A DNA stretch of 64,000 nucleotides, taken from positions 1 through 64,000 of the forward strand of contig JBDRRF010000084.1 of assembly GCA_043825875.1 (NCBI GenBank), given 5' to 3'. A program made the translations under genes and the position numbers. The notes under the pieces were generated by a model. It searched no databases, was not told where the DNA came from, and saw nothing but the letters and a program-made list of their open reading frames with translations. This stretch comes from Pseudomonadota bacterium (GTDB lineage Bacteria > Desulfobacterota > Desulfobacteria > Desulfobacterales > RPRI01). Shown piece by piece: positions 29,125-57,949 of the stretch (position 1 is its first letter; every line of letters starts with the position of its first letter).

Positions 29125-30549
29125 TTATAAAACTATATCAATAGTAGGATATATTCCTTTTTGGGCTCCCATCGGGTATGGTTGAATAATATTATAAGCT
29201 ATGTTCTGACCTTTTTGGGCATGTCCTCTATATTTACTTCCATCGAAAAACGCTCCGTTAGCTTCAAGAATATGTTCTATCCGGTCACGGAAAGCTTTGA
29301 CGAACAAGGCTCCGTTTCCATTAAAATGCATGGCTCCCATTTTAATTTTTCCGTTTGTTGTCGAAAGTTTCTCAAGAGGCATTCCATGATGCTTAAGATC
29401 AGCCTTATTACTTATATAACCCCATACAATATAGTCTGAAGGAATAGTAACAGGCTCTTTAAGATCAATAATAGTATGAGGCATTACAATAGAACCTTTT
29501 CCTATATTGAGCAAGCATTCGGGTGTCCCGTGTAAAAAGGAATTAAAACCTACAAAAACTCTTTGGCCAAGATTTGCATTTATAATTTTAGCGCCATGTG
29601 CGGTTACATTAAAACCCTCAAGTGTGGAATTTATTATATAACAATTTTCCTGAGCGTTTGAACCTTTTCCAAGCAATGCATTTTCAAGATATGCTCTTTG
29701 AGCTACAAGTACATTTTCACTGATTTTGCTTTTACCCTTAAAAACGGAATATTGACTTATTGATGCTCCGGAAGGAACCTGCATTGGTGATTTGCGATGC
29801 ACTACGTTAAAAACTTCCTGGAAATCCTCTTTACGGGTTTCAACAAAATCCATGAAAATACCTTGCGGCATTTTACCTGTTTCAAATCTGATATACCGGT
29901 TTAGAACATTTTCTTTAAAGTGGTAACTGAAGTCGAATTCATCGGCCTTTTTTACTAAGATACTTCCCGGTTCAACCCATTGGTGTATCATTTCCCCGAC
30001 CTGGACATAGGCAAACCGGCCTATCACGCAATCATGAAGAGTGGTGAGATCAACCGTTGAAAAAGGGCCTAAAAAACATCCTTCAACCGGAGCGCCGTGA
30101 ATATTTGCATAAGAAGTTGAAGCTGTATTCTTTATGATAAATTCTTCCAGATCTTCAGGGTCATGAGAATAGTTATGGACAAGAGTTTTAATTAGAAAGC
30201 TGTCGCTGATGGATATTTTTTCATCATGATCAAGAGCTATATCAACACCCTCAAAATGAAAGATATCACCTTTTGCCTTTAATTCATCACCTCTTATATC
30301 GCTTTTATAAAGCACCGAGTTATCAATGGCACATTTTCCCAGAAAATAACTTCCGGCGAGATTTGAGTTGCTGAAATGAAATGAAAGAGGATGGTGGGAA
30401 GTTATGCCATAAAAAGCATAAAATTGAACCAGCTTTTTAATAGGCACTATTTCACGAATATAAGGCGTAACATCAAATGAGCCATGTTCTCTCAAATTGA
30501 TATTAACTCTGTAGCTTATCCTTTCTATCAGCTTTTCAAGTTGTTTCAT
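29125..30549 (-). CDS. Hexapeptide-repeat (left-handed beta-helix) transferase / gamma-carbonic-anhydrase-like protein
   Basis: Repeating LbH patterns (NIHGAPVEGCFLG, VTAHGAKIINANLGQRVFVGFNS, IGKGSIV) in two blocks; function not determinable. Confidence 0.65.
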   Translation of the reverse strand: MKQLEKLIERISYRVNINLREHGSFDVTPYIREIVPIKKLVQFYAFYGITSHHPLSFHFSNSNLAGSYFLGKCAIDNSVLYKSDIRGDELKAKGDIFHFEGVDIALDHDEKISISDSFLIKTLVHNYSHDPEDLEEFIIKNTASTSYANIHGAPVEGCFLGPFSTVDLTTLHDCVIGRFAYVQVGEMIHQWVEPGSILVKKADEFDFSYHFKENVLNRYIRFETGKMPQGIFMDFVETRKEDFQEVFNVVHRKSPMQVPSGASISQYSVFKGKSKISENVLVAQRAYLENALLGKGSNAQENCYIINSTLEGFNVTAHGAKIINANLGQRVFVGFNSFLHGTPECLLNIGKGSIVMPHTIIDLKEPVTIPSDYIVWGYISNKADLKHHGMPLEKLSTTNGKIKMGAMHFNGNGALFVKAFRDRIEHILEANGAFFDGSKYRGHAQKGQNIAYNIIQPYPMGAQKGIYPTIDIVL

Positions 30550-30915
30550 AAAATCTTTCCTTATTATTAATTTTTAACAATTAAATAAGTACCTGCATAA
30601 TTTTCTGTCAGCTTTGATAAATTGTGCAAACTTATTGAAAAGTTTATTAAGAGTCAACATAAAACATTGCTCTGTCATTGTAAATTTATATTGAAAAAAG
30701 CGTTTTCTATTTGACTTAGTTTTGTATTACATGTATTGAGAACCCGCCGTGTGTATACGCTGAGGTTATTAAACAGAAGTTTTTGATCGGAATTTGCTGG
30801 TTAGACTTTTTACAAAATTGCAAAGAAAGAGAGTATTAGTTTAACTTAAAACAAATTAAGGCGTTATTTAGTATTAGAATAAGGTAATGGTATTTAAAAT
30901 TAATTAACGAGGTAG

Positions 30916-33051
30916 GTGTTTAATATGTTGACCCGAATTTTCCCTTTTCTTGTGTGGTTTAAAAAATATAGTCTTGAAGCCTTTAAGATTGATGCAATCT
31001 CCGGATTGACAGTGGCTCTTGTACTTATTCCCCAGTCAATGGCATATGCGCAATTGGCCGGGTTACCCCCATATTACGGTTTGTATGCTTCATTCATTCC
31101 TCCCATGATTGCGGCACTTTTTGGTTCAAGCCGACAACTTGCAACAGGTCCTGTGGCTGTTGTGTCTCTTATGACATCAGCATCACTGGAACCGCTGGCT
31201 ACTTTAGGAAGTGAAGGTTTTATAGCATATGCAATCCTTCTGGCTCTTATGGTAGGTATTTTTCAGTTTTCGCTTGGAGTGTTTAGGCTAGGACTTGTTG
31301 TTAATTTCTTATCTCATCCGGTTGTAAACGGTTTCACAAATGCTGCCGCGATTATTATTGCTTCTTCCCAGCTTTCAAAGATGTTTGGGGTAAGTGTGGA
31401 TAATGCGGCGCATCATTATGAAACTATAGCAAAAGTTATTAAATTTGCCATGAATTATACGCACTGGCCAACTTTGATAATGGGGGCATCAGCATTTATT
31501 GTTATGATTGTTTTAAAACGTTTTGCGCCCAAAGTTCCCAATGTGCTTGTAGCTGTTGGCATTGCAACGGTGGTATCATGGATGATCGGATTTAACTGTG
31601 ACAAAACAGCCGACATTACGTCTATTCAATCGGAAGAAACGATAGAATTAGTTGCAAATTATAATTTAGCCGTAGAAAACTCAAAAATTCTTGGTGAAGA
31701 GCGGACTAAAGCATTGACAGCTCTTGATGAAATTATAGAAAAAGGAGACCCCATAGCAGTTATTGATGCTCAAAGAGACGTTAGTATAATTGCAGCCAAG
31801 ATAGATACTTTAAAAAAGGAAAGCCGTGTATATAAAGAAGATATAAGAAATCTTTTGTTTGCAGGAGTTAAACAGTCCGAAGAAAAGATGTTTTTTTATC
31901 TTAAGGAACAGGTTCCTGAAGGAGTTGAAACAGACGGACGCACCTGGCGTATCAAAGTGAAAAACAATACTCTGGATACAACCAAGCTTACAATGATAGG
32001 CGGAGGCGCTATTGTCGGAACAATACCGGAAGGGATCCCTAAATTTTCCATACCTGCGATAAATTTTAAAGTTATGATGAAACTTTTCCCATTTGCAGCA
32101 ATTATCTCACTACTTGGTTTCATGGAAGCTATATCAATTGCAAAAGCGATGGCGGCAAAAACAGGACAAAGGCTTGATCCCAATCAGGAACTGATAGGGC
32201 AAGGACTTGCAAATATTTTGGGTTCATTTACAAGCGGGTATCCCGTTTCAGGATCATTTTCAAGATCGGCGGTTAACCTTTCGTCCGGTGCAGTGACGGG
32301 TTTATCCAGTGTTTTCACCAGCCTGACAGTATTAATAACGCTTATGTTTTTTACCCCGCTTCTTTACTATCTTCCTCAGTCAGTTCTTGCTGCGGTTATA
32401 ATGATGGCGGTTATAGGCCTTATAAATGTTTCCGGTTTCATTCACAGTATGAAGGCAAAATGGTATGACGGTACAATTTCAATTATATCTTTTATCTGCA
32501 CATTGGCCTTTGCTCCACATCTTGACAAGGGTATTATGGTTGGTGTTGTTTTGTCTTTATGTGTTTTTCTGTATAATAGCATGAGGCCGAAAGTGGCTTC
32601 ATTATCACGACATGATGATGAAGCTTTACGCGATTCAACGGTTTTTGGACTTAAACAATGCCATCATATAGATATGGTTCGTTTCGATGGGCCGCTCTTT
32701 TTTGCAAACGCAAGTTACCTTGAAGACCAAATCACAGAACGTCTTATGAATAAAAAGGAGCTTAGACATATTGTGATAGTTTGTAATGGTATAAATGATA
32801 TTGACGCTTCGGGTGAAGAAACTTTATCATTGGTAGTTGACAGGACAAGAAGCGGAGGAGTCGACATTTCATTTTCTGGTGTTAATGAAACTGTGATGAA
32901 AGTGTTTAAAAGGACGCACCTGATAGAAAAGATAGGTGAAGATCACATATATCCTACTATGGAAAAGGCTGTATGCTCGGTTTATGATGAAACACATACT
33001 GATAATAAGGAAGATATGTGTCCACTGCAAACTGTTTGCCGTATTGCCTGA
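30916..33051 (+). CDS. sulP: SulP/SLC26 anion transporter with STAS domain
   Basis: DAISGLTVALVLIPQSMAYAQLAGLP, GSSRQLATGP, NQELIGQG, GSFSRSA; STAS GPLFFANA, DIDASG. Confidence 0.95.
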   Translation: MFNMLTRIFPFLVWFKKYSLEAFKIDAISGLTVALVLIPQSMAYAQLAGLPPYYGLYASFIPPMIAALFGSSRQLATGPVAVVSLMTSASLEPLATLGSEGFIAYAILLALMVGIFQFSLGVFRLGLVVNFLSHPVVNGFTNAAAIIIASSQLSKMFGVSVDNAAHHYETIAKVIKFAMNYTHWPTLIMGASAFIVMIVLKRFAPKVPNVLVAVGIATVVSWMIGFNCDKTADITSIQSEETIELVANYNLAVENSKILGEERTKALTALDEIIEKGDPIAVIDAQRDVSIIAAKIDTLKKESRVYKEDIRNLLFAGVKQSEEKMFFYLKEQVPEGVETDGRTWRIKVKNNTLDTTKLTMIGGGAIVGTIPEGIPKFSIPAINFKVMMKLFPFAAIISLLGFMEAISIAKAMAAKTGQRLDPNQELIGQGLANILGSFTSGYPVSGSFSRSAVNLSSGAVTGLSSVFTSLTVLITLMFFTPLLYYLPQSVLAAVIMMAVIGLINVSGFIHSMKAKWYDGTISIISFICTLAFAPHLDKGIMVGVVLSLCVFLYNSMRPKVASLSRHDDEALRDSTVFGLKQCHHIDMVRFDGPLFFANASYLEDQITERLMNKKELRHIVIVCNGINDIDASGEETLSLVVDRTRSGGVDISFSGVNETVMKVFKRTHLIEKIGEDHIYPTMEKAVCSVYDETHTDNKEDMCPLQTVCRIA

Positions 33052-33072: not shown

Positions 33073-34302
33073 ATGTCTGTAATTACTATTTTTAGCGGCA
33101 CCTTCTGTGAAGAAGAATCTGTTGTTGAAAAAGTGCTTACATCAACAGGATTTAAGCTGATAACAGATGATGATATTGTTAATAAAGCAAACAGGCTTTC
33201 AGGTATAGCTGCGAACAAGCTAAAAAAAGCTTTTTTGGCCAAAGAGTCTGTTTTTAATAATTTTACGCATGAAAAAGAACTTTCTAACGCATGGCTTAAA
33301 CTTGCCGTTGCCGAAAGCATTTCCGAAGATAAGCTTCTTCTATCAGGCTTTGCAGGCCAGCTTGTTCCTAAAGTAATCAGTCATGTCTTAAAAGTATGTA
33401 TTATTGCCGAAATGAAGTTTAGAATATCTAATGCAATCATGGAGCAAAAGATTTCTGAAAAAGAAGCGGCAAGGCTTATTCATAAACAGGATGAAGACAG
33501 GCTTGTATGGATAAACACTCATTTTAAAAAAAATGACCCCTGGGATTCTTCATTATACGATTTAGTTGTTCCTATGGATAAGATGCTGCTGGAAAAGGCG
33601 GTTTCTCTTATAGTTGAAAATGCCGGAAAAGATGTTGTAAAACCTACAGAGCTTTCCCGAAAATCCGTTGTGGATTTTCTCCTTGCTTCTCAGGTTGAAG
33701 TAAAACTGGCAACGGAGGGACACAATGTTGATGCTGTTGCAAAAGACGGTGAGGTAACCATAATAGTAAATAAGCATGTTTTTCTCCAGAGTAAACTTGA
33801 GGAAGAGCTAAAAAGTATAGCCGACAAAGTACAAGGCGTAAAGTCTGTTGAAACTAAGTTTGGAGAAGGTTACTACCAGACGGATATTTACCGTAAGTAT
33901 GATTTTAAAATGCCGTCTAAAGTATTACTCGTTGATGATGAACGTGAATTTGTACAAACTTTGTCTGAACGTCTCATCATGCGTGATATGGGTTCAGTAG
34001 TGGCATATGACGGTGAATCTGCTCTAACTATGGTTTCGGAAGACGAGCCGGAAGTAATGATTTTGGATCTTAAGATGCCTGGAATAAACGGTATAGAAGT
34101 ACTGGAACGTGTAAAGAAGGATAATCCTGATATTGAAGTAATAATTCTTACAGGACATGGTACTGATGCAGACAGGGATATATGTATGAATCTTGGCGCA
34201 TTTGCATACCTACAGAAGCCAGTGGATATTGAGATATTGAGTGATACCTTGAAAAAAGCAAATGATAAGATCAGGCTAAAGAAAGCTTCTGAAGCGAAAT
34301 AG
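33073..34302 (+). CDS. Cytidylate-kinase-like + BON-like + receiver domain protein
   Basis: MSVITIFS...HVLKVCIIA...D-x2-R...YDLV N-domain with degenerate P-loop; C-terminal VLLVDDE, ILDLKMPG, LTGHG, KP. Confidence 0.8.
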   Translation: MSVITIFSGTFCEEESVVEKVLTSTGFKLITDDDIVNKANRLSGIAANKLKKAFLAKESVFNNFTHEKELSNAWLKLAVAESISEDKLLLSGFAGQLVPKVISHVLKVCIIAEMKFRISNAIMEQKISEKEAARLIHKQDEDRLVWINTHFKKNDPWDSSLYDLVVPMDKMLLEKAVSLIVENAGKDVVKPTELSRKSVVDFLLASQVEVKLATEGHNVDAVAKDGEVTIIVNKHVFLQSKLEEELKSIADKVQGVKSVETKFGEGYYQTDIYRKYDFKMPSKVLLVDDEREFVQTLSERLIMRDMGSVVAYDGESALTMVSEDEPEVMILDLKMPGINGIEVLERVKKDNPDIEVIILTGHGTDADRDICMNLGAFAYLQKPVDIEILSDTLKKANDKIRLKKASEAK

Positions 34303-34455: not shown

Positions 34456-36213
34456 ATGTCTATTCTTGAAAATTTAAAACCGAAATTCTGGAATTACAGT
34501 GATGTGGCCGCAGGCCCGCACAAGCATCTTTTCAACTTCAGGCGTATGTGGAAGATCGCGGTTTTGGTAATATCTATGGTAGCGATAATACCACTGGTTT
34601 CGATTACACTCATAGATTATAAAGTAACCCAGCATGCGGTAGAAACTGATTCTTTATTGCGTACAGCCCGTCTTGTTTCAAATACCTGGCGCACAGTTTC
34701 GTTTTTTCTTGTAGAGCGAAGAGCGGCCCTTGATTTTGTTGTACGGGATAATAGCTTTAATTCATTGTGTGATGCAAAAAGGCTTTCCGAAATCCTGAAT
34801 AATCTGAAAAAGGGATTTGGAGGTTTCATTGATATCGGTGTAATTGATTCAAACGGGATGCAAAGAGCCTATGCCGGACCCTATAAACTGCAAGGTATAA
34901 ATTACCGGGGCCAGAGCTGGTTTCAGGATGTAACCAACAAGGGAGTTAATATAAGCGATGTTTTCATGGGGTTCAGGCGTACCCCGCATATAGTTATTGC
35001 GGTCAGACACAACCTTTCCAAAGAGTCTTTTTTTATTCTTCGTGCAACAATAGATACCGACAAATTTAATGATCTTTTATCCCAGCTTGAGGTAAGCGGT
35101 CAGGGGGATTCTTTTCTTATAAATAAAGAAGGAGTTCTCCAGACACCTTCAAGAGATTATGGCAAGGTTTTGGATAAGATGCCTTTGCCAGTTCCTGAAT
35201 TTTTCCAACACACCCGTGTTTATGAACAAACTTACCAGGACAAAGCGCTTGTAATAGGATATGATTACATTGTTGACACTCCTTTTATCCTGATGATTGT
35301 AAAACAAAAAGCCGAACTGATGAAGCCGTGGCAAAAAACCCGACTGCAACTCATCGGGTTTCTTATTGCAAGCATAAGTGTTATAGTAGTTGTAATTTTA
35401 AGTGTTGCCACATACCTTGTAAACAGGATACTTCTTGCCGATCAGAAGCGTATTATGACTTTGCACGAGGTTGAATATTCGAATAAAATGGCTTCTATCG
35501 GAAGACTTGCCGCCGGAGTGGCGCATGAAATTAATAACCCTCTTGCGGTTATAAATGAAAAAGTCGGGCTTATTAAAGATATGCTCACATTAAAAGGCGA
35601 GCTTAAAGAAAATAAAAGATTAATTGAGCTTTCCAACTCGGCCCTTTATTCTGTAGACAGATGCGGGACAATTACAAAGCGCCTGTTAAATTTCGCTCGT
35701 CATCTTGACGTAAAAATACAAGAAGTAAATATTGGTGAAGTTATAAAAGATGTTCTAGGGTTTCTTGCCAAAGAAGCAGACTACAGGTCTATACAAGTTT
35801 CAATCCAGGTTTCCTCCGATATTCCTTTATTTGAAAGTGACAGAGGAAAACTTCAACAAATATTTCTAAACATTGTAAACAATGCATTTGCAGCCGTTAA
35901 AGACGGCGGTGAAATTGTTATTACCGCAAAGCGCGAAGGGACTGATTTGATTTCAGTAACTTTTACAGATAATGGCCAGGGTATTCCAAAATCGGATATA
36001 GAAAGAGTGTTTGAACCGTTTTTTTCGACCAAAACTAAACAGGGAGGAACGGGGCTTGGTCTTTCCATAACTTACGGGCTTGTACAGGAATTGGGCGGAA
36101 GTATAGGCGTTCAGAGTGAAGAGGGTAAAGGAACAAGTTTTGTTGTAACCCTTCCGCTTAAGATGGAGAAGAAGGAGGGAAAAGACAGTGAAAATCTTGC
36201 TAGTAGACGATGA
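34456..36213 (+). CDS. Sensor histidine kinase with periplasmic dCache-like domain
   Basis: Two TMs; AHEINNPL, N box, DNGQGI, PFFSTK, GTGLGL. Confidence 0.93.
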   Translation: MSILENLKPKFWNYSDVAAGPHKHLFNFRRMWKIAVLVISMVAIIPLVSITLIDYKVTQHAVETDSLLRTARLVSNTWRTVSFFLVERRAALDFVVRDNSFNSLCDAKRLSEILNNLKKGFGGFIDIGVIDSNGMQRAYAGPYKLQGINYRGQSWFQDVTNKGVNISDVFMGFRRTPHIVIAVRHNLSKESFFILRATIDTDKFNDLLSQLEVSGQGDSFLINKEGVLQTPSRDYGKVLDKMPLPVPEFFQHTRVYEQTYQDKALVIGYDYIVDTPFILMIVKQKAELMKPWQKTRLQLIGFLIASISVIVVVILSVATYLVNRILLADQKRIMTLHEVEYSNKMASIGRLAAGVAHEINNPLAVINEKVGLIKDMLTLKGELKENKRLIELSNSALYSVDRCGTITKRLLNFARHLDVKIQEVNIGEVIKDVLGFLAKEADYRSIQVSIQVSSDIPLFESDRGKLQQIFLNIVNNAFAAVKDGGEIVITAKREGTDLISVTFTDNGQGIPKSDIERVFEPFFSTKTKQGGTGLGLSITYGLVQELGGSIGVQSEEGKGTSFVVTLPLKMEKKEGKDSENLASRR

Positions 36214-36553
36214 GAAAGAGCTGGTATCAACTCTTGCTGAACGCCTCACTTTAAGGGATATTGAGGCGGATTGGGTTACCAGTGGAGATGCCGCTATAAA
36301 AAAATGTGAAACCAAAACATATGATATAGCTGTTCTTGATATCAAGATGCCTAAAATTGGTGGAATTGAACTTAAGAAAAAACTGGATTCAAAGAATCCC
36401 GGTTTGAAATATATTTTTATAACAGGCCACGGATCTGAAGATGATTATATGACAGCATGTGGCGAAACAGGGGCCGAATATTATCTTGTAAAACCAGTTA
36501 ATATTGATGATCTTATAGTAAAAATGAACGATGTTATGCTAAAAAAGGCGTAG
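36188..36553 (+). CDS. Single-domain response regulator
   Basis: LLVDDE, VLDIKMP, ITGHG, VKP. Confidence 0.92.
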   Translation: MKILLVDDEKELVSTLAERLTLRDIEADWVTSGDAAIKKCETKTYDIAVLDIKMPKIGGIELKKKLDSKNPGLKYIFITGHGSEDDYMTACGETGAEYYLVKPVNIDDLIVKMNDVMLKKA

Positions 36554-36561
36554 GTGTAATA

Positions 36562-37212
36562 TTGGTATCAAAAATGGGTATAAATGGTGAAAATGCCCTT
36601 AAATTTTTTGGGAATATGACGGCATCGATTTCTCATGAAGTAAAAAACGTGCTTGCGATTATCAATGAAAATGCCGGTCTTCTAGGGGATCTTTGTATAA
36701 TGGCTGAAAAGGGGCTTCCTATTGATCCGGGCCGCATTAAAGCCGCTGCGGAAAAAGTAATAAAGCAGGTTCAACGTGGCGATATAATTATAAATAGGCT
36801 TAACAAATTCGCCCACAGTGTTGATGAGCCGGATTGCGATTATAATGTTAACGATCTGCTTGTTTTTGTTTCGGAACTTTCCGAAAGAATTGCTTTGATG
36901 AGCGGGATTAAACTTGAAACCAATAGAACTACAGACCCTGTTATTATAAATACCAATCCCTTTTTATTTGAAACTCTTATATGGTTTTTTCTTGATTATG
37001 CCATGAATGTCGTTGTTGGAAAAGAAAAAACCATTTGTATTACAGCTGAAAAAAATTACGATAATGTTGTTATAACTTTTTCCAAATTAAAAGGACTTTC
37101 CGGAATTCAAGCAGATGAATTTCCAGGAGAGCGTGAAAAATCCCTTCTTACCGCCCTGAATGGAATAACAGCAATTGATGCTGATTCAGAAAAGATAATG
37201 ATAAAATTATAA
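36562..37212 (+). CDS. Soluble HisKA protein with degenerate ATPase domain (possible phosphotransferase or phosphatase)
   Basis: ASISHEVKNVL H-box retained; no recognisable N, G1 (DxGxG), F or G2 boxes. Confidence 0.7.
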   Translation: MVSKMGINGENALKFFGNMTASISHEVKNVLAIINENAGLLGDLCIMAEKGLPIDPGRIKAAAEKVIKQVQRGDIIINRLNKFAHSVDEPDCDYNVNDLLVFVSELSERIALMSGIKLETNRTTDPVIINTNPFLFETLIWFFLDYAMNVVVGKEKTICITAEKNYDNVVITFSKLKGLSGIQADEFPGEREKSLLTALNGITAIDADSEKIMIKL

Positions 37213-39514: not shown

Positions 39515-39530
39515 AGCAAAATGCATACCA
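39515..39530 (-). promoter_or_regulatory. Sigma-54 promoter of TSUP A operon
   Basis: Minus strand TGGTATGCATTTTGCT, exact GG-N10-GC spacing. Confidence 0.75.
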
Positions 39531-39774: not shown

Positions 39775-39800
39775 TGTCAGGATTTTTTACAATCTGTAAA
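39775..39800 (-). promoter_or_regulatory. Upstream activator sequence (bEBP site) 1
   Basis: Minus strand TTTACAGAT-TGTAAAAAATCCTGACA; TGT-N11-ACA; matches 45893-45918 at 22 of 26 positions. Confidence 0.7.
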
Positions 39801-43189: not shown

Positions 43190-43190
43190 T

Positions 43191-46000: not shown

Positions 46001-46016
46001 TGGCACATGTCTTGCC
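46001..46016 (+). promoter_or_regulatory. Sigma-54 promoter of the 46056 operon
   Basis: TGGCACATGTCTTGCC, exact GG-N10-GC. Confidence 0.8.
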
Positions 46017-48875: not shown

Positions 48876-49172
48876 ATGCGTAAAATTTGGATTAAGCTGA
48901 CAGGTATGATTACAATGGTGTTTCTGTTTTCAGTAGAAACAGTGCTTGCGGGAGGTGAAAAAGCTTCACTTCTCGTTATAGTGGCCGACACCCGTAAATT
49001 AAGCGGTTGGGAGGCCTGGTTTGCTAATCTTTATAATGAAAGTCATTTGTATTTCACAATTTTAACCGTAGTATCCATTCCGATTATCGGAGTAATTTTT
49101 GGTGTTCTGGCTGATCTGGTAATGTCCAGAATAGGAATAGACTTAAAATCAAGGGAATTGTCGGAACACTAG
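48876..49172 (+). CDS. Small membrane protein (DVU0150-like family)
   Basis: Signal peptide, VIVADTR, WFANLYN, GIDLKSR..EH; immediately upstream of TSUP gene. Confidence 0.75.
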   Translation: MRKIWIKLTGMITMVFLFSVETVLAGGEKASLLVIVADTRKLSGWEAWFANLYNESHLYFTILTVVSIPIIGVIFGVLADLVMSRIGIDLKSRELSEH

Positions 49173-50295: not shown

Positions 50296-50922
50296 ATGAG
50301 AAAGCATACTATGATAAAAAAACATGGCCTGTTTATTGTATTGTCTGCTTTATCATTTATTTTTATCTTTGCCTGCGGAAAATTAGGAAATGTAGATCAG
50401 GGCAGAGTTGTCGAATTTGATAAAGATAAAGCAATCGTTACACTAATAAGAGACTTTAACGCAGACCCGAAGAATCCGGACTATACACATCTTCCGCCTT
50501 ATATATATGAGATGCCGAAGAACCCTAATGAAATCGGAGCTCTTCCCAAAGCCGGTAAACGTATGCAACTGGATACCGAGAAAAACCAGATAGTCATATT
50601 TGATACAGCAACACAAAACTTCAAAGCCATAGATTACAAAGTAATCGATCAGAAAGATAATGTGGCCAAGAAAGACCCGCTGGTCTATGATGAGGAAACT
50701 GAGGAACCTAAAGCTTTTCCTATAGTAGACAAAGCAAATAAAACTATTACCCTTTATTCGGGTAGACAAAAAATTCTCATTACTTTTTCACTTCCTGAAC
50801 AATATTTTGCTCTATCGGACGATACCTGGGATTCAGGAGATGAAGTCCGCATCTATTATAAGGAGGAAGGTAAAGCAAGAAGATTTATGAATATTACACA
50901 AACCGATATTTTTAAAAAATAA
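50296..50922 (+). CDS. Lipoprotein (DUF4881-like)
   Basis: IFAC lipobox; GNVDQGRVV, WDSGDEVRIYYK, RFMNITQTDI. Confidence 0.7.
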   Translation: MRKHTMIKKHGLFIVLSALSFIFIFACGKLGNVDQGRVVEFDKDKAIVTLIRDFNADPKNPDYTHLPPYIYEMPKNPNEIGALPKAGKRMQLDTEKNQIVIFDTATQNFKAIDYKVIDQKDNVAKKDPLVYDEETEEPKAFPIVDKANKTITLYSGRQKILITFSLPEQYFALSDDTWDSGDEVRIYYKEEGKARRFMNITQTDIFKK

Positions 50923-50992: not shown

Positions 50993-51781
50993 ATGAATGA
51001 TATGGAAAAAACCCTGCGGTTAAGAAGAGCTGTTGGAAAAGTTGCCGCTATACTTTGTGTTATTGTCTGTTTTTCACTCATTGATACAATAATAGCAGGG
51101 TTCAGGCAATCAGCAACCGAGTTTGATGTTCTTCCGGGAACATCGATAGAATTGAATGGGCTCACAGCAGAAAAGGTTAAAAGTGGCGATGAAATTGTCT
51201 GTAAAAGCAGCTCAGATTATATTCGAATTTCAATTGATTCACTTCAGAAAGGCCACTGGTTTGGTAATAACATGTGGCATGGACATCTTATAATAAGTCC
51301 GGACGCAAAAGCCGGCGAATACAGCATCATTGTCGGTATTAAAGATATAAATCTGCAAAAAAAACACGATAAATTTCTTGTAAGAGTATATAAGGATTAT
51401 GCAAAATATCAACAAAGCTTCAAATCTGTAATAAAACGATACATAGATATTTCGCCATGGGTTTTTGCGGCTTCTTTTTCACCATTTATTATTTTAGCTT
51501 TCGGGTATATATTTATACTATCCGGGAAAATTGAAAATCTGATGGCAAAGCAGAAAAAGGCGGTAATTTACAAAGTAAAAAAAGCTAAAGAAACATGTGA
51601 AATCTATTTTGGCTTAGGTATGGATCATGGCATTAAAGTAAGCACATGCCTTACCGTTTTCAATGATAAGGGCCAACCGGTGGGAACCGCTGTAGTTAAT
51701 AGTGCAAATGGAATAGACTCTATTGCTTGCGCGGAATCGGGTTGCCTGATTAAACCCGGCTATATTGTATCAGTCTCCTGA
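50993..51781 (+). CDS. Conserved two-TM membrane protein
   Basis: 262 aa, two TMs flanking a periplasmic domain; FGLGMDHGI C-terminal beta domain. Confidence 0.7.
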   Translation: MNDMEKTLRLRRAVGKVAAILCVIVCFSLIDTIIAGFRQSATEFDVLPGTSIELNGLTAEKVKSGDEIVCKSSSDYIRISIDSLQKGHWFGNNMWHGHLIISPDAKAGEYSIIVGIKDINLQKKHDKFLVRVYKDYAKYQQSFKSVIKRYIDISPWVFAASFSPFIILAFGYIFILSGKIENLMAKQKKAVIYKVKKAKETCEIYFGLGMDHGIKVSTCLTVFNDKGQPVGTAVVNSANGIDSIACAESGCLIKPGYIVSVS

Positions 51782-51892: not shown

Positions 51893-52291
51893 ATGAATAA
51901 TATACGCCTTTTACTGGTGGATGATGAAGAAGATTTCAGAATAACACTGACAGCGAGATTAAAAAGGAGAAATATTGATGTTATCGATGTTGATAGCGGT
52001 GAAAAAGCAATAGAATTGATCAGAAATAATAAATTCGATGTAGCCATAGTTGATATCAAGATGCCTGGTATTGATGGAATAGAAACCTTAAGATATTTAA
52101 AAAGGATAGACCCGCTATTAGAGGTAATACTTCTTACCGGACATGCTTCGGTGGAGGCGGGCATAGAGGGGATAAAATTGGGAGCTTATGACTATATTGT
52201 CAAGCCGTGTAATTTAAATGATCTTTTATCCAAGGTTGAGGATGCTAATCGTCGAAGGCATATAGAGGAAGAACACATTCGGGAAAAATAA
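51893..52291 (+). CDS. Single-domain response regulator
   Basis: LLVDDE, IVDIKMPG, LTGHA, VKP. Confidence 0.92.
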   Translation: MNNIRLLLVDDEEDFRITLTARLKRRNIDVIDVDSGEKAIELIRNNKFDVAIVDIKMPGIDGIETLRYLKRIDPLLEVILLTGHASVEAGIEGIKLGAYDYIVKPCNLNDLLSKVEDANRRRHIEEEHIREK

Positions 52292-52293: not shown

Positions 52294-54876
52294 ATGTTTA
52301 AAAAGTTAAAATTATTTAATAAAGAAAAATCCTGTAAAAATAATGATGAAAGAGATAACATATCAGATCTCTTCAGATATAAGTATTCCTGCTTTAAAAT
52401 GCTTCTGGATTCAAACTCCGAATTTTTAAAAATAATAAGTGACATTGAGGAAAAACTTATAGGAAAGCAGGTATTCGGCATGTCGTATATAAGATCCAGG
52501 TCAGGCAAGGCAATTTTCCATGCTCTAAGGATGGTAAAAAACCTGGATGATCTTTCTGGCCATCGATATTCTTTGCTTTTTGATATAGTTGAAAAAATAA
52601 ATATAAATATTAAAGAAATTCTAAAGAAAAAAAAGGAGGATTTTCCTGCTGAATTTATTTTACCTTATTCAATGATAAATTCTGAGATGACCGACTGGGT
52701 GGGAGGCAAAAACGCCAATCTTGGCGAAGTACATAATAAAATCGGACTTCCTATACCACGCGGATTTGCCATCACCACACGGGCTTTTAAATTATTCATG
52801 CTAAAAACCGATCTATTGGATAAAATCAGCAAAAAAAAGATGGAGATCGACCCTGATGATCCTGAAACAATAAAAACCATTAGTGAGGACATTTGTAATT
52901 TGATAATATCATCTATGGTACCTCCCGAACTGGAAAAAGCTATAAATCTTGCCTATGCACAACTTGCAGAAACCGCTTCTGATACAAAATCTTTGGGGCC
53001 TTCGTTAAGGGTGGCCATGAGAAGCAGCGCAATAGGAGAAGATGGAGAACATTCATCTGCCGGTCAATATCTGTCCAAATTAAATGTGCCGGCAAGCCAG
53101 CTGATTCAGTCATACAAGGAAATCGCAGCAAGTCTTTATACACCACAGGCTATCACCTACCGCCTCAATAAAGGAATAAGAGATGAAGACATCGGAATGA
53201 GCGTAGCCTGTCTTCAGATGGTTGACTCGGTTTCAAGTGGTGTTATGTATTCAGGAAATCCGATCAATCTGCTGGAAAAAAATATTATCATCACTGCTGT
53301 ATTGGGGCTGGGACCTTATGCTGTTGGAGGAATTGTAACTCCTGACAGATACCTTGTGGATAATGATGGCCGGGTAATTGAAGCGGATATTTCTTATAAG
53401 ACCGTTAAACTAGTCAGTAATCCTGATGATGGATTAATGGAAACCGATGTTTCAGATGAACTTCGCCACAAACCCTGCCTATCACCAGAAAAAATAAGTA
53501 TACTTGCAGGATATGCCACAAAACTCGAAAAACATTTCGGGTGCTCTCAGGATATAGAGTGGGCCCTTGCTCCTGACGGTAATCTTCTTATCCTTCAAAG
53601 CCGACCATTACATGCCGAACAATATGGAAAGACTATTCCGATAACGCCTGTATTTACTCAATACCCTCTTTTGATAGAAAAAGGCATGAGCGTTTCAGGC
53701 GGGGTAGGTTCTGGGCCTGCTTTTCTTGTTGCCTCAGATGAAGATCTCTTGAATTTCCCGGATGGATCGGTTCTTATAGCAAGACATTCTTCCCCTAAGC
53801 TTGTCATGGCTATGAAAAAAACCCGGGCTATAATAACCGATATCGGCAACATAGCCGGGCATATGGCCTCTCTTGCCAGGGAATTTGGTGTTCCTACAAT
53901 TGTAAACGCCTATGATGCAACCACCAGGATACCGTCCGGCATGGAAATTACCGTAGATGCCTACTCAGGAAGGGTATATCAGGGAAGGGTCAATGAATTG
54001 GAGCCATTTCAGAATAAAGGCAAATTCCCCATGAAGGACACGCCGGTGTACAAGATTTTAAGAGAAGTAAGCGACTGGATAATTCCTCTGAATCTCACGG
54101 ATGCAAGATCGCCAAAATTTACACCTGATTCATGTAAATCTCTTCATGACATAAGTCGCCTTGCTCACGAATTCTCCTACACCGAGATGTTTCAACTCAG
54201 TGACTTTGTCTGCGATAAAAAAGGAATAGCTTTTAAACTTAAGAGCAATATTCCGCTTGATCTTTATGTTATTGATATAGGTGGCGGCTTTACCGAAACG
54301 AATACGGATCATAAGAATGTAACTCCCGACAAGATAGCTTCAATTCCTTTTAAAGCGCTGCTTGGAGGAATGATACATGAAGATTTTCAAAAAGAGCAAT
54401 TGCGCCCTGTGGAATTCAAAGGCTTTTTATCCGTGATGAAAGAACAGATGCTTTCTCCTCCTTCTCAGGTTGAAAGATTCGGTGACCGAAGCTACGCCAT
54501 AATTTCAGATAAATATCTTAATTTCAGTTCGCGTGTGGGTTATCACTATGGTGTCCTTGATTCCTATTGCTCCCAGACAGTTAATATGAACTATATTTCA
54601 TTTTCGTTTAAGGGCGGAGCCGCCGATGATATAAGGAGAAACAGACGAGCAAGGACTATCGCAATAATCCTTAAGTCAAACGATTTTGCCGTAGAAGTCA
54701 CAGGAGATAAGGTCAGCGCGCGATATCAGAAGCACGAAAGCGCTCTCATTGAACAAAAGCTTGATATAATCGGGCGTCTCTTACTGTTCACACGACAAAT
54801 GGATATGCTTATGACGAATGAGGCAAGCGTAGAAGCATTGGCCAAAAACTTTATGGCCGGAAAATATACGTATTGA
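52294..54876 (+). CDS. PEP-synthase/PPDK-like protein B (paralog of 40113)
   Basis: GGKNANLGE, AMRSSAIGED..SAG, QDIEWA, ILQSRP; TDIGNIAGHMASLARE; C-terminus SSRVGYHY, FSFKGGAAD, RQMDM shared with paralog. Confidence 0.85.
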   Translation: MFKKLKLFNKEKSCKNNDERDNISDLFRYKYSCFKMLLDSNSEFLKIISDIEEKLIGKQVFGMSYIRSRSGKAIFHALRMVKNLDDLSGHRYSLLFDIVEKININIKEILKKKKEDFPAEFILPYSMINSEMTDWVGGKNANLGEVHNKIGLPIPRGFAITTRAFKLFMLKTDLLDKISKKKMEIDPDDPETIKTISEDICNLIISSMVPPELEKAINLAYAQLAETASDTKSLGPSLRVAMRSSAIGEDGEHSSAGQYLSKLNVPASQLIQSYKEIAASLYTPQAITYRLNKGIRDEDIGMSVACLQMVDSVSSGVMYSGNPINLLEKNIIITAVLGLGPYAVGGIVTPDRYLVDNDGRVIEADISYKTVKLVSNPDDGLMETDVSDELRHKPCLSPEKISILAGYATKLEKHFGCSQDIEWALAPDGNLLILQSRPLHAEQYGKTIPITPVFTQYPLLIEKGMSVSGGVGSGPAFLVASDEDLLNFPDGSVLIARHSSPKLVMAMKKTRAIITDIGNIAGHMASLAREFGVPTIVNAYDATTRIPSGMEITVDAYSGRVYQGRVNELEPFQNKGKFPMKDTPVYKILREVSDWIIPLNLTDARSPKFTPDSCKSLHDISRLAHEFSYTEMFQLSDFVCDKKGIAFKLKSNIPLDLYVIDIGGGFTETNTDHKNVTPDKIASIPFKALLGGMIHEDFQKEQLRPVEFKGFLSVMKEQMLSPPSQVERFGDRSYAIISDKYLNFSSRVGYHYGVLDSYCSQTVNMNYISFSFKGGAADDIRRNRRARTIAIILKSNDFAVEVTGDKVSARYQKHESALIEQKLDIIGRLLLFTRQMDMLMTNEASVEALAKNFMAGKYTY

Positions 54877-55034: not shown

Positions 55035-56468
55035 TTAATTATCTTCCCGGGCAAAGGTTTCCATGACTATGTTGTATTTTTCAATCTTTGAATGAAGTGT
55101 GGGACGGGAAAGGCCTAAAAGTTTGGCAGCCTTTGAGCGGTTTCCATTACATATATTAAGTACTTCACTTATTAATATAGACGAGAATTCATCCATGAAG
55201 CTGTCAAAAAGATTTTCAGTATTACGGGTTTTCAATTCTTTTCTAAGCCATCGCCTCATGGCTTCATCACCCATATCCTTCTTTGATCCGTCCGAAAGAG
55301 GTTTTTCACAGATAACCTGGGAAATATCATCAGCGGATAAGGGCACTCCCCGGTTAAATATCAGAGCTTTTTGTACAGTGTTTTCAAGTTCACGAACATT
55401 ACCTGGCCATGAATATGACGAAAGTAAAGTTTTTGCCTCATCATTTATTCCGGGGTTTTTAATTCCTTTTTCATTAGAATATTTTGCGAGAAAATAATCC
55501 GTTAAAACAGGTATGTCATTTTCCCTTTCTCTTAAGGAAGGAAGCTGAATCGTAACTACTTTCAAGCGATAATAGAGATCCTCTCTAAATCTTCCGTCAA
55601 GAATCGCCTTTTCGAGGTCTCGGTTTGTAGCTGCAATGATTCGGACATCGGTATTTATATTAACAAGGCCGCCGACACGCTCAATTTTTTTTTCCTGTAT
55701 AAGTCTCAACATTTTTGCCTGAAGATTTAAAGGCATATCCCCGATTTCATCCAGAAAAATTGTTCCATTGTGAGCCTGTTCAATCTTTCCCACCTTGCGA
55801 TGAGCTGCGCCGGTAAAGGCGCCTTTCTCATAACCGAACAGTTCGCTTTCAAGCAGATTTTCCGGAATGGCAACACAGTTTATTACAAGAAAAGGTTTAT
55901 CAGCCCTCAGGCTGTGCTGATATAAAGCTCTTACAACCAATTCCTTTCCGGTTCCGGATTCACCCCGCACCAAAACAGTAGCATCGGTTGGGGATGCCCT
56001 CCCTATTGCTTTGTAGAGTTCCTGCATTACGGTGCTGCGTCCGACTATCGCATCTCTTGATGCTTTATCGGTATTTGCGTCCACATCAACAGGAGAACGC
56101 ATAAAACGGCTTGCATTTATGGCCTGTTCAATAAGAGAGAGCATTCCAGGTATGTCAAAGGGCTTAAGGATGTAGTCAAATGCTCCCAGTTTTGTTGCTT
56201 CGATAGCTGTTTCCGTTGTTCCGAAGGCGGTCATTATTATAACCGGAAGTTTTGGCTCAATTTTATGTATTGCCTTAAATGTTTCAAGTCCGTTCATGCC
56301 CGGCAGACGCATATCAAGAATTACAATATCAGGAGCCTGATTCTTGACTTCACTTAAACCGGCTTCACCGGAAGCAGCCCCAACTACACGATAGCCTTCT
56401 TCAGCCAGAAGTTTTTGAAAACTTTTGCGGAGCTGATCATCATCATCAATAATAAGAATAGAGCTCAA
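55035..56468 (-). CDS. NtrC-family sigma-54-dependent response regulator
   Basis: REC domain, GESGTGKE, ESELFGYEKGAFTGA, FLDEIGD, WPGNVREL, Fis-type HTH. Confidence 0.96.
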   Translation of the reverse strand: MSSILIIDDDDQLRKSFQKLLAEEGYRVVGAASGEAGLSEVKNQAPDIVILDMRLPGMNGLETFKAIHKIEPKLPVIIMTAFGTTETAIEATKLGAFDYILKPFDIPGMLSLIEQAINASRFMRSPVDVDANTDKASRDAIVGRSTVMQELYKAIGRASPTDATVLVRGESGTGKELVVRALYQHSLRADKPFLVINCVAIPENLLESELFGYEKGAFTGAAHRKVGKIEQAHNGTIFLDEIGDMPLNLQAKMLRLIQEKKIERVGGLVNINTDVRIIAATNRDLEKAILDGRFREDLYYRLKVVTIQLPSLRERENDIPVLTDYFLAKYSNEKGIKNPGINDEAKTLLSSYSWPGNVRELENTVQKALIFNRGVPLSADDISQVICEKPLSDGSKKDMGDEAMRRWLRKELKTRNTENLFDSFMDEFSSILISEVLNICNGNRSKAAKLLGLSRPTLHSKIEKYNIVMETFAREDN

Positions 56469-57949
56469 ATGCCTTTTCCTTTACTTTTGTCTTTTGCAGG
56501 GAGAGTAATTATAAAAGCTGCGCCCTCCCGTTCCTTTGATTCAACATCAATACGACCGCCATGTTCTTCAATTATTCTGGTTACTATACTAAGTCCAAGC
56601 CCTGTTCCCTCTTCCTTGGTTGTAAAAAAAGGCTCCATAATTTTTGCAATAAAAGATTTTGGAATCCCCGGACCATTATCACTAAATTTTAGCACGACAG
56701 CTTTCCCTATTGCAGTATCAATATCCTCATATTCATAAATTGTTATTAAACCGCCTCTTATCATTGCTTCGCAGGAATTGATCATCAGATTGACTATTAC
56801 TTCTTTTAGTTGTTCAGGATCAATATCTATTTCAGGAAGATTTTTTTCTCTTACAATTTTTACTGTAACATCATATGATTTAATACGATGTTCGAGCAGT
56901 TGTATTGCAAGATCTACTACAAGAGAGGGGCTGATTTTTTGCATCTTCAGTTTTGGCGGCCTTGAAAATTCAAGAAAGTTCTGAACTATGGTATCCATCT
57001 GGCGTATTTCATCAGATATCACCTTAATGTCATCTTGCTGTGTTTCTGTAAAGTTTTTGGAACGTTCAAGCGAAAAAAGCCGCATTTTTACAGATGTAAA
57101 AGGATTTCTTATGCTGTGCGCCATTCCCGCGGCAAGTTTTCCTACTAGGGCCATCTTCTCAGACTGCTGTAAATGTTCACGACTTTTTTCCAGTTCAAAA
57201 TGTGTAAGGTCGAAATCATTGATCAGATCTCTTACATTTTTAACAAGCACTGCGATTTCATCATGCGCACTTCCTGTATTACTTTCCCGGCCTGCTTCCA
57301 TGGCTAAACGGTAAATAGGCTTTAGAATGCCTTTAACCAGAAGAACCCCCATCATGATAATAAGAAATGTGCTCATAATAAGAGCGCTTACGGCAAAATA
57401 TCTTAATTGAATAGCTTCATTATGACTATTTTCCTTGGCAAGGGCAACCCTGTTTACATGAATAATCTTATATTCATCACAAAGTTCGATAATCTTGAAA
57501 AATTGATTTCGTACATCTTTATGAAGCTTTGCCCCTTCTTTACGCTTACCTGCAATATAATATGAGATAACACGGTCTTTCAATCCTATATAGACACCGT
57601 ATTCCTTTTCTATATTTTCGATAATCTTTTTTTGAGATTCATTTTCGGATATGAGTTTTACTTCTTCGAGTTTCTTCTTAAATATCTGTCTGTATTCACC
57701 TAACTGTTTCAGCCATTCCGGATCATTATCGAGAAAATAATAGGTTACAAAACCCTTCTGACTTATTATAGCCATTTCAAGTTCTTCAGCTGATTGCAGC
57801 GCGACTATATCTTTTTCAACCAAATGTGTTAAGGCGCTTTCTATTCTGAAAGTATACCAAAACATAACGGAACCGCCAAGAATTGTTATTATTATAAGCG
57901 ATATCAGTATTGCGTATATTCTTATACGGAGACTTAAATTATTTTTCAT
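56465..57949 (-). CDS. Sensor histidine kinase with four-helix-bundle periplasmic domain
   Basis: AHSIRNPF, DNGPGI, PFFTTK, GTGLGL; ATGA-coupled to the NtrC-type gene. Confidence 0.93.
   Translation of the reverse strand: MKNNLSLRIRIYAILISLIIITILGGSVMFWYTFRIESALTHLVEKDIVALQSAEELEMAIISQKGFVTYYFLDNDPEWLKQLGEYRQIFKKKLEEVKLISENESQKKIIENIEKEYGVYIGLKDRVISYYIAGKRKEGAKLHKDVRNQFFKIIELCDEYKIIHVNRVALAKENSHNEAIQLRYFAVSALIMSTFLIIMMGVLLVKGILKPIYRLAMEAGRESNTGSAHDEIAVLVKNVRDLINDFDLTHFELEKSREHLQQSEKMALVGKLAAGMAHSIRNPFTSVKMRLFSLERSKNFTETQQDDIKVISDEIRQMDTIVQNFLEFSRPPKLKMQKISPSLVVDLAIQLLEHRIKSYDVTVKIVREKNLPEIDIDPEQLKEVIVNLMINSCEAMIRGGLITIYEYEDIDTAIGKAVVLKFSDNGPGIPKSFIAKIMEPFFTTKEEGTGLGLSIVTRIIEEHGGRIDVESKEREGAAFIITLPAKDKSKGKGI

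Follow-up and report, generated by a model that had tools for sequence, protein, structure and literature searches.

Barrel-less dikinases, TSUP permeases and two-component systems in a gene cluster of the Desulfobacterales

Sulfate-reducing bacteria carry many uncharacterized genes for TSUP permeases, the substrates of which are poorly known (PMC5840216), and two gene clusters of Desulfovibrio place such a permease, of the TauE family, beside two-component proteins and a protein related to phosphoenolpyruvate (PEP) synthase. Expression of one of them, DVU0145-0150, rises in syntrophic co-culture without sulfate and falls when sulfate is restored, and no function has been assigned to it (PMC4265775); the genes DVU0150-0146 form a sigma-54 operon that has been placed under the control of the activator DVU0151 and in the category “transmembrane transport” (PMC4641369). 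The other is the “nitrate cluster” (DVU0251-DVU0245 / Dde_0597-0605; PMC4001038). Here, we studied a cluster of like composition at positions 29125-57949 of a 64,000-nucleotide (nt) stretch of DNA (the window; G+C ~38%), which comprises positions 1 to 64,000 of the forward strand of contig JBDRRF010000084.1, in assembly GCA_043825875.1 of a Pseudomonadota bacterium that GTDB places in the Desulfobacterales (Desulfobacterota; RPRI01).

The nitrate cluster is the only cluster of like architecture with mutant phenotypes. According to Korte et al. 2014, nitrate resistance resulted from insertions in the genes for the TauE permease DVU0251, the receiver DVU0247 and the barrel-less dikinase DVU0246, and also, in D. 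vulgaris or D. alaskensis, from insertions in a neighboring small gene and in the gene for a periplasmic binding protein; G20 mutants of the cluster grew slightly more poorly on thiosulfate, and a leaky thiosulfate transporter was suggested (PMC4001038). During thiosulfate disproportionation by Dissulfuribacter thermophilus, a TauE protein, a “transmembrane protein co-occurring with TauE” and a neighboring “PEP synthase” increase in abundance (PMC13490349). No paper in the literature searched assigns a mechanism or pathway to the cluster.

The block at 29125-57949 holds 23 long open reading frames (ORFs), the products of which were matched to Pfam and NCBIfam. A preliminary description, made from the letters alone, had listed histidine kinases, one protein with a degenerate HisKA domain, six stand-alone receivers, an NtrC-type activator, two TSUP permeases, a SulP transporter, a left-handed beta-helix (LbH) protein and two proteins resembling PEP synthase (here PPS-like); this inventory is borne out, since the genes listed are all in place with family matches. 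It had also named a smaller relative, the D. vulgaris region DVU0145-0152, as linked to syntrophic growth, and that relative is real (PMC4265775, PMC4641369). As argued below, the core of the block (37374-57949) appears from gene linkage and common promoter elements to be one conserved system, built around two PPS-like proteins that lack the pyruvate barrel.

Barrel-less dikinases and their conserved neighborhood

The core consists of the following genes (HK, histidine kinase; REC, receiver; Pfam cut-offs are 45 bits for dCache_1 and 32.6 bits for TauE):

37374..38060, reverse strand: acc228, two-pass membrane protein of 228 aa, partner of TSUP1
38062..39351, reverse strand: TSUP1, TauE-family permease of 429 aa (TauE 121.3 bits)
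40113..42713, forward strand: PPS-like 1, dikinase of 866 aa (PPDK_N at residues 138-447, PEP-utilizers at 489-558)
42749..43252, reverse strand: REC2, stand-alone receiver (Response_reg 102 bits; longest-ORF coordinates)
43191..43682, reverse strand: REC3, stand-alone receiver (Response_reg 97 bits; longest-ORF coordinates)
43861..45552, reverse strand: HK2, dCache sensor (dCache_1 71.7 bits, HisKA, HATPase_c)
46056..46451, forward strand: REC4, divergent receiver, first gene of the putative sigma-54 operon (Response_reg 41.8 bits)
46466..48127, forward strand: HK3, dCache sensor (dCache_1 53.8 bits, HisKA, HATPase_c)
48380..48799, forward strand: REC5, stand-alone receiver (Response_reg 103.8 bits)
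48876..49172, forward strand: small membrane protein of the DVU0150 family (NF040783, E 1.2e-36, 125 bits against a cut-off of 70)
49239..50294, forward strand: TSUP2, TauE-family permease of 351 aa (TauE 146.1 bits)
50296..50922, forward strand: DUF4881 lipoprotein (DUF4881 251 bits; modeled as all-beta, pLDDT 87)
50993..51781, forward strand: mem262, two-pass membrane protein of 262 aa, after DUF4881
51893..52291, forward strand: REC6, stand-alone receiver ending 2 nt before PPS-like 2 (Response_reg 103 bits)
52294..54876, forward strand: PPS-like 2, dikinase of 860 aa (PPDK_N at residues 135-442, PEP-utilizers at 488-559)
55035..56468, reverse strand: NtrC-type sigma-54 activator (REC, Sigma54_activat and HTH_8; GAFTGA in the translation)
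56465..57949, reverse strand: HK4, four-helix-bundle sensor (4HB_MCP_1, HisKA, HATPase_c)

The two PPS-like proteins are 36% identical over their full length and share one domain order: an N-terminal region of 120-130 residues, an ATP-grasp domain, a swivel His domain and a C-terminal domain without a recognized fold. Both match PF01326 (PPDK_N; 279 and 290 bits) and PF00391 (swivel His; 64 and 65 bits), and G522, the catalytic H523 and M524 are invariant among 16 sequences. Neither protein matches PF02896 (PEP-utilizers_C), the PEP/pyruvate TIM barrel, and their scores against the curated PpsA models lie far under the cut-offs, at 334.5 and 316.6 bits for TIGR01418 (cut-off 739.75) and at 346.2 and 331.2 bits for NF005057 (cut-off 598). 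The best PDB matches are PEP synthases (2OLS, 9DAE; E 1.2e-66 to 1.1e-51) over query residues 122-572, and the PDB and NCBIfam PpsA alignments end at about residue 570-585 of the PPS-like proteins. Because the ATP-grasp domain and the His are kept, the barrel is absent and the PpsA scores are so low, we regard these proteins as active-looking phospho-histidine enzymes that are, to judge from sequence, not PEP synthases. The genome encodes only two of them, and has separate barrel-bearing enzymes in ORFs of 597 aa and 922 aa.

The segment that takes the place of the barrel (residues 560-860 of PPS-like 2) is mixed alpha/beta, and not a barrel, in an AlphaFold model with a predicted local distance difference test score (pLDDT) of 76.7. 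This C-terminal domain is highly conserved: among 3684 candidate proteins, 1569 match it at E<=0.001. Of protein clusters at 50% identity, ~1475 match at E<=0.001 and 1142 at E<=1e-10, and in full-length proteins the domain always lies at about residues 550-860. Of 401 genomes sampled from the phylum, 150 encode relatives, and multiple copies are frequent; R188, H192, the run G215-D219, R222 and R226 are invariant in 27 sequences. A search for new domain partners in matching proteins of 165-527 aa found none, these being mostly gene fragments on short contigs. Foldseek returned no PDB match at E<=0.001, VIA-align wide gave a best Z of 5.7 (root-mean-square deviation 4.8 over 126 residues, in the range of noise), a profile search of PDB sequences gave a best E of 0.85, and the ESM Atlas contained no usable match; such failed searches do not amount to a new fold.

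To place the core among its relatives, we anchored a search on the C-terminal domain, scanning one genome per species; this gave at least 597 pattern matches and 564 confirmed relatives. The best 80 loci of these 564 constitute the closest set, with 43 of them at least 18 kb long, and because they are the nearest relatives a distant set of 20 loci (~40-60% identity, from other families of the phylum) was added. Neighbors were counted around the full-length PPS-like genes, 72 in the closest and 23 in the distant set. Within 8 kb of such a gene there is a TSUP gene in 56/72 and 20/23 cases, respectively, a receiver gene in 61/72 and 19/23 and a kinase gene in 56/72 and 20/23; by locus, TSUP genes are present in 16 of the 20 distant loci. 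The 43 long loci commonly contain a TSUP2-like gene (35), a DVU0150-family gene (34), mem262 (32, in each case together with TSUP2), DUF4881 (31), a stand-alone receiver (31) and a Cache-type kinase (29), as well as orthologs of the NtrC-type activator (18, at >=450 bits) and of HK4 (17). The TSUP1-acc228 pair is found in 11/80 closest loci. Independent occurrence of the components, which the preliminary description had named as grounds for rejecting the cluster, is therefore not what the genomes show: TSUP, receiver, kinase and PPS-like genes are linked in many of them, and because this linkage recurs the arrangement is not a matter of chance.

The order of the genes varies among relatives. 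In L009 and L020 the whole core gene set is co-directional in one array, relative to which TSUP1-acc228 (37374-39351) and HK2-REC3-REC2 (42749-45552) are inverted in the window. The ORFs of HK3 and REC5 overlap in L001 and L009 and lie ~20 nt apart in L002; here they are separated by an imperfect palindromic element of ~150 bp (48140-48295, inside the sigma-54 operon). That element has at least 40 more copies in the genome, at 94-98% identity and often at contig ends, and therefore looks like a miniature inverted-repeat transposable element (MITE). In eight loci (L047, L071, L072, L077, L079, L123, L125 and L135) a gene for a sigma-54 activator of ~850 aa stands directly upstream of the PPS-like gene, overlapping it by 4 nt in L125; these activator genes have no receiver-length match and are divergent from the operon of the DVU0150-family and TSUP genes.

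Among the receivers, the acidic pair, Asp, Thr/Ser and Lys are all kept in five of the six stand-alone proteins, in the NtrC-type activator and in a kinase-like/REC fusion to the left of the core; the exception is REC4, where the alignment shows the Lys and one of the two paired acidic residues to be missing. As the preliminary description had stated, there is a single DNA-binding output: the NtrC-type activator, with matches to PF00072, PF00158 (238.8 bits) and PF02954, alone has such a domain among the proteins of the block. It is probably co-transcribed with HK4. A REC gene directly adjoins the PPS-like gene in 24/72 closest and 10/23 distant cases, and in the window REC6 and PPS-like 2 are such a pair. 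In REC6, D10, D11, D54, T82 and K104 are invariant (16 sequences). Complex prediction with paired alignments scored REC6 with PPS-like 2 at 0.46, against 0.00 for the best control; at least 72% of contacts are common to the runs, and the partner has a pLDDT of 80 or more. The pass counts as weak. Only 18/157 solved complexes passed at scores of 0.60 or below, a range that also held the two mismatches that passed. From the weak score, the gene adjacency and the mutant phenotype shared by the receiver and the dikinase of the nitrate cluster, we estimate the chance that REC6 binds the dikinase as somewhat better than even.

Several core proteins can be described further. The TauE (PF01925) matches of both permeases span profile positions 1-235 of 237, above the cut-off. 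Neither acc228, in the translation of which both the N and the C terminus are hydrophobic, nor mem262 has a match in Pfam or NCBIfam. A fold search with the DUF4881 model gave only generic OB-like matches (Z up to 6.8), from which no function follows. The true start of REC2 is probably later than the longest-ORF start.

Promoters and a shared palindrome

We searched for -24/-12 promoters with the sigma-54 consensus TGGCAC-N5-TTGC, and found the palindrome TTTACA-N3-TGTAAA by seeking words common to the two promoter regions of the window:

46001..46015, forward strand: sigma-54 promoter match TGGCACATGTCTTGC, perfect, 40 nt before REC4
39516..39530, reverse strand: candidate sigma-54 promoter of TSUP1-acc228, TGGTATGCATTTTGC, two mismatches with GG and GC kept
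39786..39800, either strand: palindrome TTTACAATCTGTAAA, candidate enhancer in the intergenic region from which TSUP1 and PPS-like 1 diverge
45893..45907, either strand: palindrome TTTACATATTGTAAA, candidate enhancer 94 nt upstream of the sigma-54 promoter

As a sequence match, TGGCACATGTCTTGC is the sole perfect sigma-54 site in the window, where 0.08 would be expected. Such sites recur in the related loci before REC4-like genes (10, at distances of 7-46 nt), DVU0150-family genes (5), TSUP1 (4) and HK3 (3), and in L008, L009, L020 and L031 there are better sites than that of the window, 71-140 nt upstream of TSUP1, with the palindrome 192-262 nt upstream of the same gene. A further sequence, AGGCATACATTTGGC at 40003-40017, lies 96 nt before PPS-like 1 and keeps the GG-N10-GC spacing; because it has three mismatches to the consensus, it is a merely possible promoter.

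The palindrome has exactly two sites in the 64 kb, both in intergenic regions with sigma-54-type matches. A set of 120 related loci, 2.05 Mb in all, contains 57 exact sites, none of them inside a recognized gene, as against 0 in ten block shuffles. Sites lie within 900 nt upstream of PPS-like 2 (22), DVU0150-family genes (22, mostly in the same divergent regions), REC4 (14), HK3 (10), PPS-like 1 (6) and TSUP1 (5). They are present in 18 of the 25 loci with an NtrC ortholog, as compared with 12/55 without, and where the ortholog is present the site typically falls just after the HK4-NtrC genes and before REC4. The palindrome thus behaves as would an enhancer site of the NtrC-type activator, its putative binding protein, although 12 loci have the site without a visible ortholog. 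The palindrome is new here; the text of the D. vulgaris sigma-54 regulome paper, as distinct from its figures, does not mention it. Through this common cis-element and sigma-54 control, the TSUP, dikinase and Cache-kinase operons would constitute one regulon, and because enhancer-like site and sigma-54 promoters link the core operons, one DNA-binding output would be enough.

In the whole genome the palindrome has 6 sites, whereas a reversed control pattern has 1. At 4036-8369 of locus L148 (contig C35) the palindrome is followed, 114 nt on, by TGGCATATCATTTGC, a good sigma-54 match, and then by an operon for a Usp protein, a Pat-like protein of 897 aa that combines ADP-forming acyl-CoA synthetase domains with GNAT, and a second Usp in tandem; this operon is likely a further target of the same activator. 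At 10154-10280 of locus L147 (contig C100 of the same genome), the palindrome and a sigma-54-type sequence, TGGCATATGCCTTGC, stand 98 nt apart and point toward aprB-aprA-qmoABC, ~800 nt upstream of aprB, with a MITE-like copy in between and Sat nearby. Neither element occurs within up to 1.5 kb upstream of aprB in 29/29 other genomes of the order, two of them from the same genus, and this link to adenosine 5'-phosphosulfate (APS) reductase is therefore not used as evidence. Two more sites, in the 3' end of dnaX and in an ORF for an NmrA-like protein, are in coding regions and were taken as chance.

Readings of the cluster

In the mechanism that we propose, the four-helix bundle of HK4 would sense a periplasmic signal and the kinase would phosphorylate the NtrC-type activator, which, on TTTACA-N3-TGTAAA, would fire sigma-54 promoters driving the operon REC4-HK3-REC5-DVU0150-family gene-TSUP2-DUF4881-mem262-REC6-PPS-like 2 and probably TSUP1-acc228 too. 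The Cache-type kinases would report periplasmic ligands by phosphorylating the output-less receivers, and these would bind the PPS-like dikinases and control them. The dikinases would use ATP to load the swivel His, from which the phosphate would go to a target bound to the C-terminal domain of the same protein, a step that would be needed for the TSUP complexes to work and that may act on the transporter rather than on its cargo. The transported anion would most likely be an inorganic sulfur oxyanion, for example, thiosulfate. We consider it an even chance that the core is one regulon for anion transport by TSUP permeases, regulated in this manner. The more specific proposal, that the PPS-like proteins are receiver-gated phospho-histidine dikinases whose C-terminal domain phosphorylates the TSUP complex or its inorganic oxyanion cargo, is put forward tentatively, as possible rather than probable.

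The phenotype that permease, receiver and dikinase share in the nitrate cluster offers, by analogy, the best evidence that these components may form one pathway and that transport may need the dikinase. Together with the adjacency of receiver and dikinase genes and the complex score, it lends indirect support to part of an idea in the preliminary description, in which receivers act post-translationally on transporters or PPS-like proteins; the support concerns the PPS-like proteins. The multi-input phosphorelay suggested there is not supported, no His-Asp-His-Asp relay being in evidence, and of its “anion or carboxylate” transport the first half is retained: nothing points to a carboxylate, and the few functional hints lead to sulfur oxyanions.

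Several points weigh against regulated anion transport through a dikinase step. For every member the substrate is putative, and the parallel with the nitrate cluster rests on architecture, not sequence. The thiosulfate hints derive from unpublished data quoted in PMC4001038 and from the Dissulfuribacter proteome, in which the “PEP synthase” is a putative member of the family and has different locus tags in text and table (PMC13490349). The complex pass is weak and yielded no interface, and a receiver gene adjoins the PPS-like gene in just about one-third of cases. The TSUP1 promoter match is poor in the window, with its two mismatches, and the palindrome also occurs where an NtrC ortholog is not visible. 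In the eight loci where the dikinase gene follows a DVU0151-type activator gene, the dikinase may feed transcription control, not transport. Finally, chemical trapping of the cargo by the dikinase would give the same mutant phenotypes.

This last possibility deserves a fuller statement. TSUP would import an anion and the dikinase would phosphorylate it on the C-terminal domain, much as PEP synthase phosphorylates pyruvate, so that uptake would be coupled to activation, with the receivers only tuning activity. The proteins have the domain order of PEP synthase with a different last domain replacing the substrate barrel, the invariant Arg, His, Lys and Asp of that domain (27 sequences) fit a phosphoryl-transfer site, TSUP linkage is tight, and loss of the enzyme would end net accumulation, in keeping with the shared phenotype (PMC4001038). 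However, neither a substrate nor a product suggests itself, the neighborhood has no conserved gene for an enzyme that would act on the phosphorylated product, and protection from nitrate by failed phosphorylation is hard to explain unless nitrate itself is trapped; we regard trapping as fairly unlikely. We also see a PPS-like protein that acts as a signaling kinase as improbable. Here the ATP-loaded His would serve as the phosphate donor, either for the neighboring receiver or for a DVU0151-type activator at its sensor region, and so act on transcription. Such a His-to-Asp phosphodonor would be unrelated to classical histidine kinases, and we know of no precedent for it. Adjacent or translationally coupled receiver and dikinase genes, a receiver with all phospho-acceptor residues and the weak complex pass (0.46 against 0.00 for the best control) are what one might expect of it, as are the eight loci in which the dikinase gene comes directly after a DVU0151-type activator gene that lacks a receiver domain; but a classical kinase is encoded within 8 kb in 56/72 and 20/23 cases, so that the receivers already have donors, and in other genomes PPS-like 1 has a partner of the REC4 type, from which key receiver residues are missing.

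Two further explanations concern the cluster as a whole rather than the dikinase. It might serve syntrophic life, for instance through export or import of a metabolite that the partners exchange, such as an organic acid, and have no role with sulfur oxyanions; to this we attach a small probability. In its favor, organic acids are frequent ligands of Cache domains. TSUP substrates are poorly known (PMC5840216), and DVU0145-0150 do respond to syntrophic co-culture and to the return of sulfate (PMC4265775); yet syntrophic cultures lack sulfate, and the induction may therefore equally reflect acceptor starvation, the sole reported growth defect of mutants in a like cluster is on thiosulfate (PMC4001038), and a SulP gene adjoins the cluster here. 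An accidental pile-up of two-component systems and transporters with ordinary PEP synthases, for which one could cite the wealth of two-component genes in sulfate reducers and the name “phosphoenolpyruvate synthase” that databases give to the PPS-like genes, is already contradicted by the data and has a negligible claim: the linkage is conserved across families of the phylum, the operons have a common cis-element, the PpsA scores are far under the cut-offs (334.5 vs 739.75 and 346.2 vs 598), and the barrel domain is missing from these proteins and present in separate enzymes elsewhere in the genome.

Among the readings that involve the dikinase, the evidence does not tell its target apart: this may be the transporter complex, the cargo or a receiver. 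If regulated transport through a dikinase that gates or energizes a secondary transporter is correct, it would be a new mode of two-component action, and a receiver-gated dikinase would be a novel coupling of signal to transport, somewhat like a phosphotransferase system for sulfur oxyanions but two-component-wired and bypassing transcription. Like clusters in model sulfate reducers are tied to two unexplained phenotypes, induction in syntrophy and nitrate sensitivity, the second of which matters where nitrate is applied to counter souring in oil fields. The label “PEP synthase” on the ~1,100 clusters of C-terminal-domain proteins (50% identity, E<=1e-10) distorts metabolic reconstructions. 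Experimental handles are provided by the palindrome, the invariant His and the receiver partners, and the common cis-element with sigma-54 control would define a regulon of TSUP, dikinase and Cache-kinase operons.

Adjoining genes and comparison with known systems

To the left of the core, the remainder of the block (29125-37212) contains six genes:

29125..30549, reverse strand: LbH protein of 474 aa, left-handed beta-helix (Hexapep_loop 58 bits; family of PDB 3C8V)
30916..33051, forward strand: SulP transporter with STAS domain (Sulfate_transp 349.8 bits, STAS 61 bits)
33073..34302, forward strand: cytidylate-kinase-like P-loop/REC fusion (Cytidylate_kin2 at residues 3-169, Response_reg at 284-392)
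34456..36213, forward strand: HK1, Cache-type sensor (dCache_1 38.8 bits, under the cut-off of 45; HisKA, HATPase_c)
36188..36553, forward strand: REC1, stand-alone receiver (Response_reg 88.5 bits; acidic pair, Asp, Thr and Lys all kept)
36562..37212, forward strand: HK-like protein of 216 aa with degenerate HisKA (DHp-like His box; HisKA E 0.0024, 18.3 bits)

The SulP protein scores 454 bits against TIGR00815 (cut-off 380). HK1, HK2 and HK3 are paralogs, 32-36% identical over their full length. The HK-like protein has weak AtoS-like matches and 26% identity to the DHp region of HK1, and the family search found no HATPase_c match in it. In the fusion, the middle 110 residues match no family, and the BON domain that the preliminary description had placed there is unconfirmed, with no match even at E<=1. 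Residues 1-471 of the LbH protein (474 aa) align with PDB 3C8V (E 3.8e-172), a structure from structural genomics with the label “putative acetyltransferase”, and LbH matches occur in 78/151 genomes of the order.

This module repeats the logic of the core: its anion transporter is accompanied by a Cache kinase, by receivers and by a kinase-like protein. The operon of SulP, kinase-like/REC, HK1, REC1 and HK-like genes has the same order in L111, L115, L117 and L118. In a survey of 20 loci centered on an LbH gene, the five-gene SulP operon was present in 4 and a version without SulP in 1, HK4-NtrC orthologs adjoined in 3 and HK2-type kinase/receiver sets in 3; counted together, cluster-type signaling or SulP genes lay within 10 kb in 12/20, and there were no cluster genes in 8/20. 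Neither the SulP/kinase-like-REC operon nor LbH was ever within 10 kb of the PPS-like gene in the 80 closest loci, neither SulP nor LbH was found in the 43 loci of at least 18 kb, and the palindrome is absent from 29125-37212. The block is thus not the single unit that it had been taken for: the SulP operon and LbH appear, from their distribution, to be a parallel and loosely attached module that is only sometimes a neighbor of the core.

The genes flanking the block are unrelated to it. Those on the left encode DnaJ and an MFS transporter, and those on the right encode a UDG-like protein and an RNase T2. Farther to the left, a type I restriction-modification locus (16574-23755) comprises HsdM, HsdS, an inserted YhcG-like nuclease gene and HsdR, the last split into two ORFs (20534-21805 and 21977-23755), and a second YhcG-like gene is found at 25110-25886. 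An oxidative-stress island (3546-15641) encodes MsrA, MsrB, rubrerythrin, desulfoferrodoxin, flavodoxin and a flavodiiron-type protein, as well as subunits I and II of cytochrome bd oxidase. The window has no Rfam match.

Among known enzymes, the PPS-like proteins share with PpsA the order of an ATP-grasp domain followed by a swivel phospho-histidine domain, and differ from it in the absence of the TIM barrel, in place of which they have a conserved 300-residue alpha/beta domain, and in an extra N-terminal region of 120-130 residues; their scores range from below half to ~58% of the curated PpsA cut-offs. Rifampicin phosphotransferase and the barrel-less dikinases of the PigC/RedH type also combine ATP-grasp and swivel His with an acceptor other than pyruvate. 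In rifampicin phosphotransferase and PigC-type enzymes the His domain is C-terminal, whereas in the PPS-like proteins it is central and followed by the C-terminal domain without known fold; the N-terminal domain is similar, but matches to NF041857 (220 bits vs a cut-off of 999) and NF052631 (187 bits vs 1300) lie far under the cut-offs and cover only the ATP-grasp part (profile positions ~3-310). Like NtrB/NtrC systems, the core has a kinase (HK4) paired with a REC-AAA+(GAFTGA)-HTH_8 regulator, a -24/-12 promoter and a palindrome ~94 nt upstream; unlike them, it has a four-helix-bundle sensor and a putative regulon that encodes more kinases and receivers without DNA-binding output.

With the nitrate cluster, the core has in common a TauE permease and its small conserved neighbor, the two-component pair of histidine kinase and single-domain receiver, and a dikinase in which ATP-grasp and mobile His domains are present and no barrel is annotated. 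The PtxB-like periplasmic binding protein and the DVU0245-type phosphatase are confined to the nitrate cluster, having no match among the 23 ORFs of the block, and its dikinase gene is shorter, at 2235 bp (~744 aa; PMC4001038).

A further close counterpart is DVU0150-DVU0146 with DVU0145, to which the core appears homologous, the sequence link running through the NCBIfam model. Both have a DVU0150-family protein leading to a TauE permease, lipoprotein and membrane proteins, a receiver and a PEP-synthase-related protein: in the window, the DVU0150-family gene (48876-49172) stands directly before TauE (49239), as in the DVU0150-DVU0146 operon, and REC6 and PPS-like 2 end the operon, just as the listed DVU cluster includes a receiver and a PEP-synthase-related protein (PMC4265775). 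Sigma-54 dependence is likewise common to both, here as a promoter match by sequence. The activators differ, with an NtrC-type response regulator and HK4 here and in D. vulgaris the one-component DVU0151, in which GAFSEA replaces GAFTGA; the window has no DVU0151-type activator gene divergent from the operon, and related loci such as L071, L123 and L125 have ones of ~850 aa. Unlike that of DVU0150-DVU0146, the sigma-54 promoter of the window precedes an operon that begins with the genes for a divergent receiver and a Cache kinase, and beyond the genes of DVU0150-DVU0146 the window has a second TSUP/dikinase pair and extra kinase/receiver sets. The system is thus a variant of the published clusters, with another type of activator, a second TSUP/dikinase pair and more sensors.

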